Source of the DNA: a virus
Virus record (IMG/VR): IMGVR_UViG_3300031215_000009
Span: 17,442 to 81,441 of that record
DNA length: 64,000 bases
Direction: 5' to 3' (one strand)
Positions 1 to 60,955 of this stretch are shown here, one piece after another. Position numbers and translations under genes: made by a program. Position 1 is the first letter of the stretch. Each line of letters opens with the position of its first letter. Under the pieces are notes generated by a model, which saw only the letters and a list, made by a program, of their open reading frames with translations, did not search any database and was not told the origin of the DNA.

Positions 1-16
1 AAATACGATATATATC

Positions 17-205
17 ATGTTTGAAAACCCCAGAAAAAACCCTAATATTAAACAAGGTGATAGATTATTAATTGATTTTGACCAAATCAAAGCACCTAAA
101 ACTAATAAAAATGATATTAATATAGAAAGAGAAAAACTAAAAGAGGATATTAAAAAACCTACGATTAGAATTAACCCACCTAAAAAAGGTAAAAGTTTAT
201 TTTAA
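17..205 (+). CDS. hypothetical protein ending in KGKSLF (possible clamp-binding tail)
   Basis: 62-aa ORF abutting the next gene; C-terminal K-x-x-L-F like PolB fragment 3. Confidence 0.5.
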   Translation: MFENPRKNPNIKQGDRLLIDFDQIKAPKTNKNDINIEREKLKEDIKKPTIRINPPKKGKSLF

Positions 206-679
206 ATGAATGAAGAAAACGAAGAACTAAAACAAACTGAATTATCAACGTCTGATAAATTAGATGTTGCGTTTGAAAAAGAACGCAAAGAAATATCTGC
301 ATATATTAAAGAAAATATTACAGATAAAATGCATAGTATTGATGAAATAGCAAATCTTCAAGTTCATTTGTTATCTCAACGACAACGATTGGTTGATAAG
401 ACTAATAGTTTAAGAGCCTCTATTAGAAAGAAAAACAAAAGTATGGCAAGGATTAGGAAACAAAAATTTCGTTTCTATAAACTCGACTATGACGTTAAAT
501 TAAATGATTATGAAATAACAAGACATATTGATGCAGATGTAGAGGATGTAGTAAATATGGTTAAAATATTAGAAAATCAAATATTATACTACAAAGATAC
601 AACCGACACGTTAGACAAATGTACTTATATGATTAAGTACTTAATAGACGTTAAAAAGTTTATGTCAGGTAGTTTTTAA
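206..679 (+). CDS. uvsY: UvsY-like recombination mediator
   Basis: Helical protein with HIDADVE and C-terminal YMIKYLIDVKKFMSG resembling T4 UvsY; directly upstream of uvsW. Confidence 0.75.
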   Translation: MNEENEELKQTELSTSDKLDVAFEKERKEISAYIKENITDKMHSIDEIANLQVHLLSQRQRLVDKTNSLRASIRKKNKSMARIRKQKFRFYKLDYDVKLNDYEITRHIDADVEDVVNMVKILENQILYYKDTTDTLDKCTYMIKYLIDVKKFMSGSF

Positions 680-729
680 CACTATTAAATACCTTATAAA
701 CACTATAAACACTATAAATACAAGTACTC

Positions 730-1749
730 ATGAAATTCGAGACAACTCACTCGGGTAAAATATTAACTTTAGTTGACGCTTCTGTTTTAGAAAGAAAGCA
801 ATTAAGTTTATCTTTAACCAAAAAATTAGAATATTACAATTTCTTACCTCCAGCAGTTAAGAAAAGATGGAATGGAATTGTATCTTATTTCCACAAGGAT
901 AGATTTGTCCCTGTTGGTTTGTGGCAAGAATTAAAGTACATTGCAGAAACTTTCAAATTCCCATTAGAAATAACAGGACTTGGAGAAGCAATATTCTACA
1001 AAGATGTAACAAGAGATGAATTTCAAGATTGGGTAGATGATAAGTTTTTCGGTGCCGTTAATTCTAAAGGTGATGATTTTATTCCAAGAAAATATCAAGT
1101 TGATACTGCATACGCAATCTTAACTAATAAAATATCAGTTAGTGAATTAACAACAGCTGCAGGGAAATCTTTGATTATCTTTATTTGTATTGTTTATTTT
1201 CAAGAAACTGGTTTAGGAAAGAAATTCTTAATGATTGTACCATCTATTGATTTAGTAATACAAGCTTATGAAGATTTTAATGAATATAATAGTTTTTTAT
1301 TAGAAGATAATAGATTTCCATTGAATATCAAACAAATTCATGGGGGAGAAAAGAAAGACTTTATTGCATCACAAAATATACATGTTAGTACGTTTCAATC
1401 ACTTGCTAAATTTCAAAATCAATACTTCACTGTATTTGATACTGTTATTGTTGATGAGTGTTTACACCCAGACAGTTTAATCAAGATGGGAGATAATACA
1501 ACAAAGAAAATATCAGATGTAGTAATAGGAGATGAAGTTTGGACTACTAATGATATTACAGGAGATTTGGAAATTAATAAAGTAGATTATATTTATAAAA
1601 ATCTTTCAAGTCACGAACACTTATATGAATTGGAATTAGAGGATGGTTCGATATTAGAACTAACAGGAAATCACAAAGTAAAACTTTCTGATAAATCTTA
1701 TAAGAGAGTTGATGAATTGACAGGAAGTGAAGATATAATAACTTATTAA
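730..1749 (+). CDS. uvsW: UvsW SF2 helicase fragment 1 fused to split intein N-part (IntN 1459..1746, 96 aa)
   Basis: PRKYQ Q-motif, TAAGKS Walker A, VIVDE followed by CLHPDS (intein block A) and LTGNH (block B). Confidence 0.93.
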   Translation: MKFETTHSGKILTLVDASVLERKQLSLSLTKKLEYYNFLPPAVKKRWNGIVSYFHKDRFVPVGLWQELKYIAETFKFPLEITGLGEAIFYKDVTRDEFQDWVDDKFFGAVNSKGDDFIPRKYQVDTAYAILTNKISVSELTTAAGKSLIIFICIVYFQETGLGKKFLMIVPSIDLVIQAYEDFNEYNSFLLEDNRFPLNIKQIHGGEKKDFIASQNIHVSTFQSLAKFQNQYFTVFDTVIVDECLHPDSLIKMGDNTTKKISDVVIGDEVWTTNDITGDLEINKVDYIYKNLSSHEHLYELELEDGSILELTGNHKVKLSDKSYKRVDELTGSEDIITY

Positions 1750-1753
1750 ATAA

Positions 1754-2032
1754 CCTATAAAAAGTTTACAAGAAATTATAAATGAACAAACAGAAGCTAT
1801 TCATCAAGATACTGGGATAGAAGAAGGACAACGCAAAGATGTTGATGAAAAAGTAGAAAAGAAGAATCAACAGAATATAGATAAGTTCAAAGGTTTAGAA
1901 GTTTACTTAAAAGAAAATGACTACAAATTCCATTTAATAGATGAAGACTATTTTAGTGTTCAAGATTATTCTTCTTTGGAAAACCAACCAAATAAAAAAT
2001 TACTTAAAACCAGACTAAAAGCATTTATATGA
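1754..2032 (+). pseudogene. remnant of endonuclease gene between intein halves
   Basis: Open frame without ATG ending DKFKGLEVYLKENDYKFHLIDEDYF...KAFI*, like a PD-(D/E)XK/TnsA-type nuclease C-terminus; stop overlaps IntC ATG (ATGA). Confidence 0.5.
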
Positions 2033-2832
2033 AAATAAAGAAAATAACAAAAAAGAAATATAAAGGTGATGTTTATAATCTTAGAATAGATAGTGAAGAT
2101 GGAAACAATCATAATTACTTTGCTAACGATATTAATGTATCGAATTGTCATAGAACTAAGTCAAACACTATTAGAGAATGTATTAGTAAGTGTGTAAATG
2201 TAGAAAGACGTTTCGGATTAACAGGAACAACTCCAAAACAAGGTACTTTAGATAGTTTAACACTACAAGCATATCTTGGTCCCAAGGTAATAGAAGTTAA
2301 AGCAAAAGAATTACAAGACAAAGGAGATATTGCAGAAGTTGATATAGCAATTGTTGAATTGATTTACCCTGAAGAAATTCAAAAACGATTTGATGATATT
2401 AAAAAGAGTATGACAGGTGAAGACAAAGGAAAACTTCTTAAAATAGAACAAGATTTTATTATTAAGTACATTCCTAGAGTTGAATTAATTTCAAAAGTCA
2501 TTTCTAAAGTTCAAAAAAACCAATTAGTGTTGTTTCACAGACAAGCTTATGGTAAACAACTTAAAAAGTACTTAGAAGAAAATACAGATAAAGAAATATA
2601 TTTTATTTATGGTGAAACTAAGAAAGATGATAGAGCTGAGATTAAAAGATTGATGGAACATGATGTTATTGAAAAGGAAATAGATGCTTTTCGATTTGAT
2701 TCAGAAGGTAATAGTTATGAAATATCACACAATGAGTATATTAGATTAGTAAATGGTAAATCTATAAAGGTGTCAAATTTAAGTGAAAATGATGATATTG
2801 ATTTGAAAAGTATATCTAAATTTAAAGTTTGA
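2029..2832 (+). CDS. uvsW: UvsW fragment 2: IntC (39 aa, ends VSN) + helicase middle + degenerate half-Hint tail
   Basis: YNLRI..HNYFAN.INVSN|CH restores DECH motif II; GLTGT motif III; LVLFH motif IV; tail resembles second half of IntN. Confidence 0.92.
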   Translation: MKIKKITKKKYKGDVYNLRIDSEDGNNHNYFANDINVSNCHRTKSNTIRECISKCVNVERRFGLTGTTPKQGTLDSLTLQAYLGPKVIEVKAKELQDKGDIAEVDIAIVELIYPEEIQKRFDDIKKSMTGEDKGKLLKIEQDFIIKYIPRVELISKVISKVQKNQLVLFHRQAYGKQLKKYLEENTDKEIYFIYGETKKDDRAEIKRLMEHDVIEKEIDAFRFDSEGNSYEISHNEYIRLVNGKSIKVSNLSENDDIDLKSISKFKV

Positions 2833-2877
2833 ATCACAACTGGAGTAAATATATAAAATATATAAAATAGATATATT

Positions 2878-3819
2878 ATGAAAAATGATTTACTTAAATG
2901 TTTCCAAGAAAAACATGGAACTCCAGATAATGTAAATAAATTAAATGAATATGTTGATTTCCTCCTGACATATAAGTTAAATGAAACTGAATATACTGAA
3001 AATCATCATATATTAGATAGGGCATCATTCCCAGAATTTGAAAAAGAAGAATGGAATATTATAACATTAGACTATAAAGACCATATTAAAGTACATGAAA
3101 TGTTGTTTGAAGATTATAATATTAGAAGATACCAAAGAACTCTTACTTTCAAAGGAGTGAAAAAAGATTATAAGTTACTTTCTAATGCAGCAAAGAAAGG
3201 ATGGACTAAATTTAAAAACAACAAAGTAAAATATGATTTATTTTGTTTACGTAGAAGTGTAATAATGAAAACACTTTCGTCAGATGAACAATCAAGAAGG
3301 GGTAAATTATTTTGGGATAATTTATCAAGTGATGAATTAGAAAAATGGAAAATGAAATGTAATAAAGGTAGAACCAACGAATCAAAAATAAAACAAAAAG
3401 AATCAATTAATATTTATTATTCTAATCCTGATAATAGGGAAAAGAAATCTAAAGAAACAAAAGACTATTGGGATTCATTAAGTGAATCTAAAAGAAATGA
3501 TTTTAGAAAAAACATGAAATCTATAAATTCTAATGAAGATAAAAGAAAAGATGCAAGTGTAAAAATAAAAAATAAATGGCAAGACCCTGTTTTTCAAGAA
3601 AAAATGTCAAATAGAAAAACTAAACCAAAAAACAAATATGAATTGATATTTGAAGATGGTAATAAAGAAATAATAATTGGGTTTTCTGAAATGATAGAAA
3701 AATATAACTTAAATGCTACACTAATTAGAAAATTCTTAAATACGAAAACCAAAGTAGAATCTAAAAGTAAACGAGAACAAGCATTAAATACAATAGGATT
3801 AATAATAAACCAAATATAA
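2878..3819 (+). CDS. free-standing HNH homing endonuclease
   Basis: YTENHHIL..NIITL...HIKVH HNH motif followed by Lys-rich helical repeats; lies inside the fractured uvsW. Confidence 0.85.
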   Translation: MKNDLLKCFQEKHGTPDNVNKLNEYVDFLLTYKLNETEYTENHHILDRASFPEFEKEEWNIITLDYKDHIKVHEMLFEDYNIRRYQRTLTFKGVKKDYKLLSNAAKKGWTKFKNNKVKYDLFCLRRSVIMKTLSSDEQSRRGKLFWDNLSSDELEKWKMKCNKGRTNESKIKQKESINIYYSNPDNREKKSKETKDYWDSLSESKRNDFRKNMKSINSNEDKRKDASVKIKNKWQDPVFQEKMSNRKTKPKNKYELIFEDGNKEIIIGFSEMIEKYNLNATLIRKFLNTKTKVESKSKREQALNTIGLIINQI

Positions 3820-3820
3820 T

Positions 3821-4163
3821 ATGGCACAAATAACAAATTTAAAACACATAAAAAAGAAAGTAGAGGCTGCAAGAGTTCTTGTAGCCTCTTATTAGGTGCG
3901 GTACGTTATCGACAGGAATTAACATAAAAAATATCCATAATATTCACTTTACTGAATCGTTTAAATCAGATGTTATTGTAAGACAGTCTATTGGTAGAGG
4001 TTTAAGACAACATAAAGATAAAGATAAATTAAGAGTTTATGATTTTGTAGATTGTCTTAATACTGGAAAAGATAACATGTTAATGAATCATTCAAGAGTT
4101 AGACGAACAATCTACAAAGAACAACAATTTGATTATATTATCAAGAAAGTACATTTAATTTAA
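3821..4163 (+). CDS. uvsW: UvsW fragment 3 (motifs V-VI), interrupted by 7-nt insert TAGGTGC at 3893..3899
   Basis: MAQITNLKHIKKKVEAARVLVASY* then in +1 frame GTLSTGINIKNIH...VRQSIGRGLRQH...VYDFVD, matching UvsW VASYGxxSTG and QxIGR; missed by ORF track. Confidence 0.85.
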
Positions 4164-4167
4164 TAAT

Positions 4168-4203
4168 GGTCTCATAGAGTTAAATACTTTATGAGACCTT
4201 TTA
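4168..4203 (+). terminator. intrinsic terminator
   Basis: GGTCTCATAGAGT / ACTTTATGAGACC stem followed by T tract. Confidence 0.8.
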
Positions 4204-4253
4204 TTTTTTATAAAGTTTTTAATTACATTAAATAATTAAAAGAAATATAGTAA

Positions 4254-4601
4254 ATGAAGAGTTTAAATGAATTTTTAAAGGAAGAGGTATCTGATAAGTT
4301 AGAAGAAAGAACTGTTCAAGTTAAAAGAAAATATGGTATTCATGATTCTATCAAAGTTGGAGCAATTGCACCAGTTAGATTAAAAATATTAGGATTTATT
4401 GCAGAAAAAGGTCATTGTACTAAAGATGAATTAAAAGAATTTATAAATTCTAAAAATGAAGATTCAGGGACAAGAACTAATATGTCTTGGTTAAGAAAAA
4501 ATGCAAAATATATTACAGAATTTGAAAAAGATGGTTGTAGTTGTTGTAAACTTTCTAAACTTGGTAAAAGAGTTATAAACAAAACAAATATCAACGATTA
4601 A
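4254..4601 (+). CDS. hypothetical late protein (winged-helix-like, capsid-targeting-like N-terminus)
   Basis: MKSLNEFLKE start; ATTAAATA upstream. Confidence 0.65.
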   Translation: MKSLNEFLKEEVSDKLEERTVQVKRKYGIHDSIKVGAIAPVRLKILGFIAEKGHCTKDELKEFINSKNEDSGTRTNMSWLRKNAKYITEFEKDGCSCCKLSKLGKRVINKTNIND

Positions 4602-4667
4602 TAGTTTAATTCGCAATTAAATCTAATTAGGATTAAATATAGTAACTAAAAAATATAAACATAAAAA

Positions 4668-5261
4668 ATGAAAAATTTAACAGGATTTATAAACGAGGCT
4701 CAAAAGTCTAAAAAACAAAAAGAATATCAAGATTTCTTTGATAAGAAATTAGAAAAATATAATGTAAAATCACCTGCAGAACTTGATGATGCTGAAAAGA
4801 AAAAATTCTTTAATGAAATAGATAAAGAATGGACAGGTGAAGCTACAAACGAAAAGAAAGTAGAAGAAGATTTCGATTCTGAAGATGATGAAGATTCTGA
4901 AGACTTGAAAGATAAGAAAGATAAAGACGATAAGAAAGACAAAAAAGAAGAAGATGAGGATGATGAAGAAGATGAGGATGATGAAGAAGATGAAGATGAT
5001 GAAGAGGATGATGAAGAAGATGAAGATGAAGAAGAAGATGAGGAAAAAGTTGATGAAAGTTTAATAACAGAAAAAGAATCTAAATTTGCTAAAAAATTCA
5101 AAGGGTTAGTAGATAGTAAAGATATTGCAGGAATTAGAAACGGTGTAAAAAACGTTTTCGCTGATTTAGCAGAAGAAGGAGCAGCTAATGAAGATATTAG
5201 AGAATTTATTCAAATGTATGTTGATATTTCATTGGATCAAATCGAAGCATCTGTTGGATAA
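4668..5261 (+). CDS. acidic putative head core/internal protein
   Basis: MKNLTGFINEA start, long D/E tract, late-promoter motif upstream. Confidence 0.65.
   Translation: MKNLTGFINEAQKSKKQKEYQDFFDKKLEKYNVKSPAELDDAEKKKFFNEIDKEWTGEATNEKKVEEDFDSEDDEDSEDLKDKKDKDDKKDKKEEDEDDEEDEDDEEDEDDEEDDEEDEDEEEDEEKVDESLITEKESKFAKKFKGLVDSKDIAGIRNGVKNVFADLAEEGAANEDIREFIQMYVDISLDQIEASVG
4947..5043 (+). repeat. low-complexity GAR/GAY repeat encoding EEDEDD units
   Basis: tandem gaagaagatgaggatgat-like units. Confidence 0.8.
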
Positions 5262-5290
5262 GTATAATAAAACACAACAAAACACATTAA

Positions 5291-5320
5291 AAAAGGAATC
5301 TCAAAAGGATTCCTTTTTTT
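5291..5320 (+). terminator. intrinsic terminator
   Basis: AAAAGGAATC-TCAAAAG-GATTCCTTTT + T tract. Confidence 0.85.
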
Positions 5321-5322
5321 AT

Positions 5323-5350
5323 TGATTAAATATTAAAACTTAGAATTACT
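5323..5350 (+). repeat. 28-bp direct repeat copy 1 (late promoter + leader)
   Basis: TGATTAAATATTAAAACTTAGAATTACT identical at 9046..9073. Confidence 0.9.
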
Positions 5351-5354
5351 ATAC

Positions 5355-6632
5355 ATGGCAAATTGTAACATTATAACTTTAAAAGGAACATCTTCGATTT
5401 CAAATGATAGAATCATTATAAATGAAAATTTTAAAAACCTTATTGGGTGTTTAAAAGAACTACAATCTTTAGTAGATTCTGGAAATATAGATATTAATAG
5501 TAATTCTGTTAGTAATGATTCGAATGTTCCTGGTAATACTGTTACCAATGCACTAAATAATTTATTATCTTCAATGTCAACAAGTAATTCAGTTACTTTA
5601 GTTGATTTACTTGATGATTTACCATATATTGGTAGTAGTGGTGATTTATGTTTTGTTAGAGATATAACTGCAAAAACAACACCTATAAGTGCATTATATA
5701 TTTATGATACAGAATGGAAACAATTAATTAGGGAAGATTCAAATACGTACATAACAGATTTGAATGATGCTATCGAATCACCGGGTCTAAATATAATAGG
5801 AGCAACCGTCGCAGATATAAAAGGTAAAACATTCTCAGATTTCATTGATATTTACGTGTTTCCAACTGTAGCAGCATCAATATCAGCAAACGAATCTGCT
5901 AATATAGTTTATGCTGGTGCATCTTCAACTGTTGAAGTAGGTACCACACTAGATGTTACATTAACTGCAACATTTAATAGAGGTTCTATACAAAATGGTG
6001 ATGGTAGTTCAGGTCCATTATTAGTAGGTTTACCAAATCAATATGAATTTTCTGGACCTGGTATTTCGGTTCCTGTTGTAATTACATCAACAAATTTATC
6101 TGAAATATTAACAACTGCAAATACTGGAATGTCAACAGTATTAGCGATTTTCGGTTCACAAAATTGGGGAATTGATATTGATTATGATGCTGGAAGTGGT
6201 ACTTATTTAGATTCTAAAGGAAATGTTGCTAATAATCTTGATGGTAGTAGAGTATCTGGAAATGATACAGATGATACACCAAATATTACAGGTAGATATT
6301 ATGTATTTTATGATACTGGTTCAATAGTATCAAATTCAGCACAAGTTAGAAATTCATCAGGAAAAGTATTTTTATCTGCATCTAATACTGGTTCATTTAC
6401 TATAAATATACCATTAAATACAGCAGAAGTATATTTTTCAGTTCCTACTGGAAAATCAGTACAAGTAAATTACGTACAAAGTTCAAATGCAGACGTAACA
6501 GGGTCATTTGCTAGTTCAACATTTAATGTTGATGATGCTAGTGGTTCTGCAGTATCTTATGATACTTGGCGTTCTACTATTGGTGGTGGAGGTTATCCTG
6601 CAAATGCAACATATAACGTAGTAATAAGTTAA
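5355..6632 (+). CDS. putative virion structural protein (fibre/Ig-like, beta-rich)
   Basis: S/T/G/N-rich beta-strand composition; late promoter upstream. Confidence 0.6.
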   Translation: MANCNIITLKGTSSISNDRIIINENFKNLIGCLKELQSLVDSGNIDINSNSVSNDSNVPGNTVTNALNNLLSSMSTSNSVTLVDLLDDLPYIGSSGDLCFVRDITAKTTPISALYIYDTEWKQLIREDSNTYITDLNDAIESPGLNIIGATVADIKGKTFSDFIDIYVFPTVAASISANESANIVYAGASSTVEVGTTLDVTLTATFNRGSIQNGDGSSGPLLVGLPNQYEFSGPGISVPVVITSTNLSEILTTANTGMSTVLAIFGSQNWGIDIDYDAGSGTYLDSKGNVANNLDGSRVSGNDTDDTPNITGRYYVFYDTGSIVSNSAQVRNSSGKVFLSASNTGSFTINIPLNTAEVYFSVPTGKSVQVNYVQSSNADVTGSFASSTFNVDDASGSAVSYDTWRSTIGGGGYPANATYNVVIS

Positions 6633-60616: not shown

Positions 60617-60955
60617 ATGGAAAAGTTTCAAGCAAAGATTCCTTTCATAACATTAATCCTAGTGTGTTGTACGTATCTTTATACGTGCAACACTAATAGG
60701 AATGTTGGGAAAGTTATCAAAGAAAACAAAGAAATGTCATCATCTATTGATTCTCTAAAAACTGAGATCACTAACTTATCAGATAGTACTATTTCAGCCG
60801 AAGAATTTCAAATAAGATTAGAATTAGAAGGTTACAAAATTTCAAATAGAAATCTTTATTATAATAATGCTATTATTAGAACTAAAGTGAGACCTGATGA
60901 TATTATGCACAAGTATAATGCTGAAATAGAACGATTAACAAAAAAATTAAAATAA
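60617..60955 (+). CDS. membrane-anchored coiled-coil protein
   Basis: N-terminal TM followed by coiled coil. Confidence 0.6.
   Translation: MEKFQAKIPFITLILVCCTYLYTCNTNRNVGKVIKENKEMSSSIDSLKTEITNLSDSTISAEEFQIRLELEGYKISNRNLYYNNAIIRTKVRPDDIMHKYNAEIERLTKKLK

Follow-up and report, generated by a model that had tools for sequence, protein, structure and literature searches.

How does a phage make the end of its UvsW helicase when a stop codon, with four further bases behind it, sits inside a helicase motif? The question is raised by a stretch of viral DNA of 64,000 nucleotides (nt), called the window here and always meant at its full length, which is part of the 81-kb IMG/VR record IMGVR_UViG_3300031215_000009 and whose DNA is present in salt-lake metagenomes. 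Judging from its alignments, uvsW is cut in the window between helicase motifs IV and V by a mobile HNH cassette. One base past the TAA of an endonuclease open reading frame (ORF) of 313 amino acids (aa) at 2878-3819, a 24-codon frame (frame 2, 3821..3892) opens with ATG 3821 and runs through GTT CTT, GTA 3881, GCC 3884 and TCT 3887 to a Tyr codon, TAT 3890-3892, after which comes TAG. The 7-nt gap at 3893-3899, made up of TAG 3893-3895 and GTGC 3896-3899, separates this Tyr codon from GGT 3900-3902, and from that GGT 87 sense codons (3900-4160) complete helicase motif V and run to TAA 4161-4163. Our answer is that the feature is, on the strength of the sequence comparisons set out below, a real and conserved recoding site, and that translational bypass driven by refolding of an upstream hairpin is the best reading of the gap and probably the right one. 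The parts are as follows:

2878..3819, + strand: HNH homing endonuclease gene, 313 aa, matching phrog_12434 (E 3.1e-15)
3821..3892, + strand: uvsW fragment 3a, 24 codons, with a new N-terminus to about 3874 and the element-encoded VLVASY at 3875-3892
3862..3889, + strand: hairpin, with 5' arm 3862-3873, loop 3874-3877 (AGTT) and 3' arm 3878-3889 (the L-V-A-S codons)
3890..3892, + strand: proposed take-off codon TAT (Tyr), Tyr in 35/35 distinct cassettes
3893..3899, + strand: putatively untranslated gap of 7 nt, TAG + GTGC, with the proposed landing triplet TGC at 3897-3899
3900..4163, + strand: uvsW fragment 3b, 87 codons (the rest of motif V and the motif VI region) plus TAA

Is the gap really an interruption of a working gene? 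An earlier sequence-only reading of this DNA had noticed the stop-containing insert TAGGTGC at 3893..3899, a Lys-rich nascent peptide and an intact run of 87 codons downstream, and had pointed out that removal of exactly these seven bases restores VASY-GTLSTG. All of this held up: the layout is as described, five of the 24 residues are Lys, the downstream codons match UvsW C-termini and stay open to the TAA, and intact homologues read ...VAS[Y/F]GT.STG... with no spacer between Tyr/Phe and Gly. Indeed, the AS-x-GT spacing is kept in 78 of 80 endonuclease-free uvsW loci. Fragment 3b matches phrog_9690 at positions 220-306 (E 2.8e-26) and is 52-58% identical to its counterparts in Pelagibacter phage HTVC008M and an uncultured phage. 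In nine viral contigs (L004-L012), whose UvsW C-termini are 67-84% identical to the window's, the gene is unsplit and there is no endonuclease, gap or hairpin. The window's VLVASY aligns to these relatives in protein but is spelled with different codons (GCC TCT as against GCA AGT), and the ACG TTA TCG of the window stands where they have ACT CTT AGT. Among these, GCC, ACG and TCG are rare codons in this genome (2.1, 2.3 and 2.9 per 1000). The rare ACG and TCG fall just after the gap (3900-3917), at the ACT and AGT of the intact relatives, and may stem from co-conversion with the donor or from changes that weaken the site as a target for the endonuclease. A megablast of window positions 600-4300 against phages gave no match, and an exact 27-nt pattern had no matches in a collection of viral contigs that excludes the window's own record.

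What, then, would the cassette bring with it? On these comparisons it would lengthen the upstream helicase fragment by a tail of about 55 aa, bring the HNH endonuclease gene, give the downstream fragment a new start with a short N-terminus, and supply its own VLVASY codons, recoded to pair with the sequence directly upstream, as well as the short stop-led gap, placed between Y and G of the invariant AS-Y-G-T motif. The sequence-only reading had offered a mobile-element footprint as an alternative to bypass, and this was half right: the gap does appear to belong to a homing-endonuclease cassette, a connection that Manning and Atkins also draw for gene 60.

Does the same layout occur elsewhere? 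An alignment of endonucleases (A1, with six protein relatives), in which HH and other invariant residues are conserved, retrieved 56 metagenome loci and 42 viral loci, and a tblastn search with intact UvsW found full-length endonuclease homologues, 37-45% identical, at the same position of uvsW. The junction is contained in 26 of 58 sources (the window and L084-L140), and in 25 of the 26 it reads Tyr, stop, short gap, GGN ACN; a degenerate pattern of hairpin, Tyr and stop matched 18 viral contigs. Comparison with related genomes, which had been named earlier as a check, thereby came out in favour of the site: in total, 49 loci with 35 distinct sequences have the layout of hairpin, Tyr, stop, gap and GGN, with gaps of 4-17 nt. 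Among the 35, the gap is 4 nt long in nine, 5 in three, 6 in one, 7 in 18, 8 in two, 9 in one and 17 in one; the take-off codon is TAT in 22 and TAC in 13, the stop is TGA in 27, TAG in five and TAA in three, and the codon after the gap is always GGN. In all cassettes the upstream fragment has the conserved tail of about 55 aa, and the downstream fragment opens with a short, new N-terminus that lies at the endonuclease stop or overlaps with it.

The window's copy is one of the five distinct TAG-led gaps, and its UGC landing triplet is common only to L084. It has its own hairpin sequence, an endonuclease at most 45% identical to those of the other loci fetched, and a host gene with a split intein, and it appears to be a divergent TAG/UGC member of the uvsW cassette family. 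Two database endonucleases, P0003 and P0004, are 59% identical to the window's. Among phage isolates, 0 of 109 records cover at least 80% of the endonuclease, and the 24-residue N-terminus of L087, used as a query in the search for isolates, had no match; we know of no isolate that carries the cassette. Two members deserve a separate word. L183, on the reverse strand, has the longest gap, of 17 nt, has lost its endonuclease, and carries a TAA in the downstream frame directly before GGT. L110 (3579-4830), the one junction among the 26 that departs from the layout, has an intact-looking endonuclease ORF of 303 aa together with Phe in place of Tyr, no gap and other motif codons; its hairpin has decayed (-2.9 kcal/mol), making it a natural gap-free control in which hairpin and gap go together.

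What of the hairpin in front of the gap? The sequence-only reading had estimated it at approximately 12 base pairs (bp) ending just before the Tyr codon, and RNAfold gives 12 bp and a 4-nt loop, with the stem ending 0 nt before the Tyr codon at 3890. In a 141-nt context the minimum free energy (MFE) is -28.6 kcal/mol (z = -3.34), and none of 200 shuffles is as stable. The 5' arm lies in cassette-specific sequence without a counterpart in intact relatives, and the 3' arm is formed by the VLVAS codons; the hairpin therefore arrived with the insertion. Across 25 gap loci the MFE of the 39 nt before Tyr ranges from -12.7 to -24.3; in 79 endonuclease-free uvsW loci, where the hairpin is absent, it averages -4.4 (standard deviation 2.3, best -9.9). 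Covariation was assessed in 23 sequences, 18 of them distinct, with L084 and L111 (other register or loop size) and L110 (no stem) set aside: 98.1% of 216 cells pair, four of the 12 pairs (22 cells) have changed on both sides, none of 500 shuffles does as well, and in registers slid along the sequence pairing drops to 36-57%. The most variable pair consists of two synonymous third positions. Even the hairpins of L084 and L111, which are in a different register, keep the 3' end unchanged. Stems are 9-13 bp long; among 31 distinct hairpins, 29 have a loop of 4 nt and 26 a stem that stops 0 nt short of Tyr. The sense strand gives the more stable fold in 28 of 31, as expected for a structure in mRNA with G-U pairs, and a DNA palindrome or protein-binding site is unlikely for the same reason. 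Taken together, the covariation and the constant geometry argue that the hairpin is selected.

An intrinsic terminator was also considered for the hairpin at 3862-3889 and rejected, a terminator scan of 2600-4400 having called only a site behind the uvsW stop. A further scan took in both strands of the 64 kb and required a stem of 10 bp or longer with a sense codon and a stop behind it, leading into a long open frame; it returned the uvsW site with one more, at 60664-60693. We rejected this as a second such site, its "sense" codon being TAA; it looks like a gene end.

Is the frame beyond the gap used? Each of the 33 complete distinct sequences keeps it open, for 86-99 codons, and the median ratio of nonsynonymous to synonymous substitution rates (dN/dS) in this downstream exon is 0.18 (132 informative of 300 pairs). 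Individual pairs point the same way: L088 and L106 have a ratio of the proportions of nonsynonymous and synonymous differences (pN/pS) of 0.10 despite gaps of 8 and 4 nt, and L101 and L087 one of 0.08, though the gap of L101 ends in a second stop. Endonuclease and exon distances are correlated (Spearman 0.87 over 276 pairs that are not independent, with similar synonymous divergence in many pairs), and nine of the 18 contigs from the pattern scan have an endonuclease that is lost or a remnant and nevertheless keep tails, hairpin, stop, gap and open frame. The window's own fragment 3b has a pN of 0.209 to the outgroup L012, as against 0.212 for L004 and 0.216 for L010, both of which are intact. 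We conclude that the downstream codons are, by these measures, under purifying selection.

L099 and L100 form a case apart. Their cassettes have a single mismatch across 3164-4501, and divergence begins inside the gap, at 4502; the endonuclease has a pS of 0.01 as against 0.34 for the exon, in which nonsynonymous differences number 0/126 and synonymous ones 12/36, and the landing triplet is TAC in one and GAC in the other. A near-identical cassette in front of a diverged exon is the mark of recent homing and places the 3' end of the element at the gap.

How might a ribosome cross such a gap? We propose that a ribosome starting at ATG 3821 would stall once UAU (Tyr) occupies the P site and UAG has entered the A site. 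At that point the ribosome would cover the hairpin's 3' arm (-1 to -12), the E-site codon included, with the 5' arm already outside, and the arms would re-pair at the mRNA exit and pull the message forward. Peptidyl-tRNA-Tyr would leave UAU 3890 and move 7 nt to UGC 3897-3899, where U-A, G-U and C-G pairing with the anticodon GUA is possible; GGU 3900 would then enter the A site and decoding would resume, giving one protein of 111 residues with motif V intact. This fragment would presumably assemble non-covalently with the spliced product of fragments 1 and 2. If T4 MobA is a guide, the gap itself probably serves to disrupt the target of the cassette's own endonuclease while leaving the motif free of extra residues.

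Re-pairing of peptidyl-tRNA-Tyr predicts that the triplet before GGN should resemble UAY, and 33 of the 35 distinct landing triplets do fit at two or more positions (all three in seven, which have TAT or TAC, two in 26, one in two). In the window's TGC, positions 1 and 3 match and position 2 could pair as G-U. The short, hairpin-aided bypass that the sequence-only reading had suggested, with take-off at UAU, UAG skipped and landing on a near-cognate UGC, is thus favoured by recurrence, covariation, purifying selection and the landing fits.

There are, of course, points that weigh against this reading. The two remaining landing triplets, ACC and GTC, fit UAY at one position only, and the window's UGC is near-cognate, with a perfect UAC 3 nt further on, at 3902-3904, in a dead frame. 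For the window's copy the one sign of selection is the pN comparison, which a very recent insertion would also pass, and the window is the only fetched member of its sub-lineage. The family counts are not phylogenetically independent, and part of the selection signal between lineages may predate invasion in some of them. Finally, bypass could be inefficient, the effect of such hairpins on 70S ribosomes having been seen only without release factor 2 (RF2).

Which other explanations deserve to be taken seriously? The one that survives best, although we think it unlikely, is a +1 frameshift at UAU-U, after which AGG and UGC would be read and Arg-Cys added inside motif V. The 7 nt do divide into one skipped base and two codons, neither of them a stop, experiments on 70S ribosomes have shown that an upstream hairpin can promote +1 shifting at a stop codon, and a shift of +1 or +2 gives an open path in 30 of the 35 distinct gaps. 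However, the size of the shift would have to differ (+1, +2 or 0) even between close relatives, such as L088 with 8 nt and L106 with 4, or L093 with 9 and L142 with 7, and the path is blocked in the other five gaps (6, 7, 7, 9 and 17 nt), which hold a stop in the shift or read-through path; a single frameshift therefore does not fit the whole family. Moreover, the extra residues would vary in number and kind at a place where the motif spacing is so nearly fixed in intact genes (the 78 of 80 above), AGG and TGC are rare here (2.5 and 0.5 per 1000 codons), and a move from UAU to AUU offers no re-pairing.

A dead or dying gene end is, we think, quite improbable. On this view the uvsW C-terminus was inactivated when the endonuclease invaded, or when its cut was imprecisely repaired, and still looks intact only for want of time, much as the sequence-only reading had listed recent inactivation among its alternatives. 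The idea gains something from the absence of a close gap-bearing relative of the window among the loci fetched, from the dispensability of uvsW in T4 and from L099 and L100, which show that the cassette can arrive recently. Against it stand the undecayed downstream frames in 33 of 33 complete distinct sequences, the covarying hairpin with its invariant Tyr and stop, and the window fragment's lack of excess nonsynonymous change. It is the co-divergence of endonuclease and exon, together with the nine of 18 pattern-scan contigs that keep gap and frame after losing the endonuclease, that led us to set recent inactivation aside.

Removal at the RNA level is likewise a slim prospect. Here a structure-guided cut by the hairpin and religation, for example by phage RNA-repair enzymes, would delete the gap, and a variable gap length with fixed boundaries does fit an excision defined by structure. 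Among the runs listed as carrying the window's DNA there was no RNA run. Yet no Rfam family matches within 1-6000, tRNA re-pairing accounts for the UAY preference seen just ahead of GGN and excision does not, and we know of no precedent for the excision of 4-17 nt from a bacterial or phage mRNA.

As for an assembly or sequencing artefact, the record comes from a metagenome and its depth is low, but the same architecture in 48 other loci leaves this a negligible chance, and a 7-nt assembly slip, which had also been raised as an alternative, is very unlikely since Logan contigs of two salt-lake runs carry the 7 nt unchanged. These contigs, from X1 (510 nt, 3511-4020) and X3 (151 nt, 3860-4010), both span the gap with 0 differences and 0 gaps; the runs have different study codes and low depth (4.5 and 2.1), X1 is possibly the source sample, and Logan contigs can mask rare variants at the gap.

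Several further candidates were tried and rejected. Reinitiation in the gap would have to use GTG 3896, the only start-like codon there, which lies in the wrong frame; an ATG in frame first appears at about 4077. Stop-codon reassignment sits badly with the occurrence of all three stops and with gaps that are mostly not multiples of three. For a group I intron, Rfam searched over 1-6000 at a permissive threshold (E up to 1) returned two unrelated sub-threshold matches only, and VLVASY is encoded only downstream of the endonuclease gene, which also disfavours it. The weak Rfam matches, to the small RNA (sRNA) SpF25 sRNA at 5247-5324 (E 0.037) and to sR52 at 4971-5013 (E 0.2), are far below gathering scores and probably chance. 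An intein-mediated join at the break between fragments 2 and 3 was set aside, there being no Pfam Hint domain in the fragment 2 tail and fragment 3a consisting of 24 residues without His-Asn plus nucleophile. As to a special tRNA, there is no tRNA gene within the 64-kb window.

What does the rest of the gene look like? The remaining features of uvsW and its surroundings are these:

730..1749, + strand: uvsW fragment 1, the helicase N-terminal part as far as the DE/C box, with the N-intein (Hint) piece
2029..2832, + strand: uvsW fragment 2, the C-intein piece, the helicase middle and a cassette-supplied C-terminal extension of about 55 aa
4168..4198, + strand: terminator-like hairpin with a T run, 3' of the uvsW stop, the sole terminator-like site in 2600-4400

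Fragment 1 has Pfam ResIII/DEAD matches, Hint (PF01079) at residues 242-325 and a match to phrog_16259. Fragment 2 matches phrog_9690 at positions 15-209. Its native helicase sequence ends at about 2658-2664, and the tblastn alignment of intact UvsW to the window stops at 2658, with the extension occupying about 2659-2829. A like extension closes the upstream fragment in 23 of 23 cassette loci displayed; the tail is conserved in all 23 (pattern ...NG.x.K....DDDID...) and has no Pfam match. Separately from the cassette, the DE/C(H) box of uvsW is also broken (at the slash), by an apparent split intein (730-2832): fragment 1 ends in the Hint N-piece, and the short C-piece of fragment 2 ends ...VSN before Cys. 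The spacer between them, 1750-2028 (279 nt), has no listed ORF of at least 30 aa on the gene strand. The split seems to recur in catalogued phages, because the PHROG families phrog_16259 and phrog_9690 cover both halves, including the intein pieces. Beyond uvsW, an ORF of 197 aa at 4668-5261 has a long Asp/Glu-rich middle of low complexity, where the opposite strand reads poly-Ser.

Why should any of this matter? Efficient programmed bypassing long rested on one bacterial or phage system, T4 gene 60. We lean, by a little better than an even chance, towards the broader view that the uvsW cassettes form a second, non-homologous family of endonuclease-borne bypass elements, widespread in uncultured T4-like phages, in which a refolding 12-bp hairpin, the sole conserved stimulator, would act as the spring that carries peptidyl-tRNA-Tyr over 4-17 nt with little need for a matched landing codon, and in which the gap would be an immunity device against the element's own nuclease. 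If this is true, there is an independent family in another gene, with another take-off tRNA, gaps of 4-17 nt and one clearly conserved signal, the 5' hairpin, and the pairing of an endonuclease with an untranslated gap would be a recurring answer to self-cleavage inside indispensable motifs. It would also furnish a test bed of about 80 nt, easily cloned, for what moves a non-translocating ribosome forward, with the natural variants as a ready mutational series for testing pairing of the exiting mRNA as the driver of bypass. On the side of annotation, a uvsW called truncated or a pseudogene in these phages is probably whole.

How does the site compare with systems already described? Weiss et al. 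1987 reportedly described short hops that E. coli ribosomes make across a stop or a slow codon, and the likeness lies in a peptidyl-tRNA that leaves the codon before a poorly decoded one and re-pairs a few nt downstream, independently of frame. Those hops are low-level or engineered and need matched codons, whereas the uvsW site is natural, conserved and tied to a mobile element, with a dedicated hairpin and a mostly near-cognate landing. Upstream refolding hairpins stimulate +1 frameshifting (Cho et al. 2013, PMC3639245; Huang, Cho and Chang 2018, PMC6321510), and a designed GC-rich 12-bp tetraloop hairpin by the E site did so at CUU-UGA on E. coli ribosomes in the absence of RF2 (PMC6321510). 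These constructs resemble the uvsW site in placing a stable tetraloop hairpin of about 12 bp directly before the shift site while a stop codon occupies the A site of a 70S ribosome; they differ in being designed, in using prfB CUU-UGA and in shifting by +1 only, whereas in uvsW the 3' arm includes the E-site codon and the proposed displacement is 4-17 nt.

The best named phage matches of the endonuclease are MobD-like or Mob-like proteins, at 28-31% identity over 41-58% of the query, one MobD-like protein reaching 28% identity over 58% of the length. The T4 gene 39 / mobA / gene 60 element, with its 50-nt translational bypass, is said to have been described by Bonocora et al. 2011. In the uvsW cassette, as there, the gene that is split serves replication or repair, and what splits it is an HNH endonuclease gene of about 1 kb. 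In the MobA element an HNH endonuclease stands between a C-terminal and an N-terminal tail, the homologous region that the element itself encodes comes next, and a stop-led bypass follows; the element has its 3' end at the landing codon, there are derivatives that lost the endonuclease and kept the bypass, and the gap protects against self-nicking (Manning and Atkins, bioRxiv 10.1101/2022.08.31.505936). Every point of this architecture has a match in uvsW: a C-terminal tail on the first ORF, an N-terminal tail on the second, a recoded copy of the replaced host codons, a gap that opens with an in-frame stop directly after the take-off codon, a 3' end at the gap (here in L099 and L100) and endonuclease-free derivatives that keep it. 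In MobE in nrdA of Aeromonas phage Aeh1, the split ORFs also have tails and their products reassemble (10.1101/2022.08.31.505936); added tails are common to both cases, and the difference is that MobE and nrdA are without a coding gap.

Manning and Atkins called the gene 60 bypass cassette unique in 2022, and uvsW goes unmentioned in the accessible part of their text, supplements aside (10.1101/2022.08.31.505936). A literature search whose scope mostly left aside subscription journals and supplements found no paper linking uvsW to translational bypass in the text available, PMC12619734 included, and the uvsW bypass site is new relative to print as far as that search reached. The differences from the gene 60 family are indeed considerable. 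The host gene is uvsW and not the large topoisomerase II subunit gene, the gaps are of 4-17 nt as against 20-50 nt, the take-off residue is Tyr (35 of 35) as against Gly or Asp, the nascent chain has only 18-26 residues, and the gap leaves no room for a take-off stem-loop or an internal mini-Shine-Dalgarno sequence, unlike gene 60. In gene 60 the 5' stem-loop is not conserved between clades, and pairing of the exiting mRNA has been proposed to drive bypassing forward (10.1101/2022.08.31.505936 for the stem-loop); in uvsW a conserved 5' hairpin ends at the take-off codon, with a geometry that matches this very idea. Alike in architecture, distant in endonuclease sequence and different in host gene, take-off, gap and signals, the window's cassette would work like the MobA element but stands outside its family.

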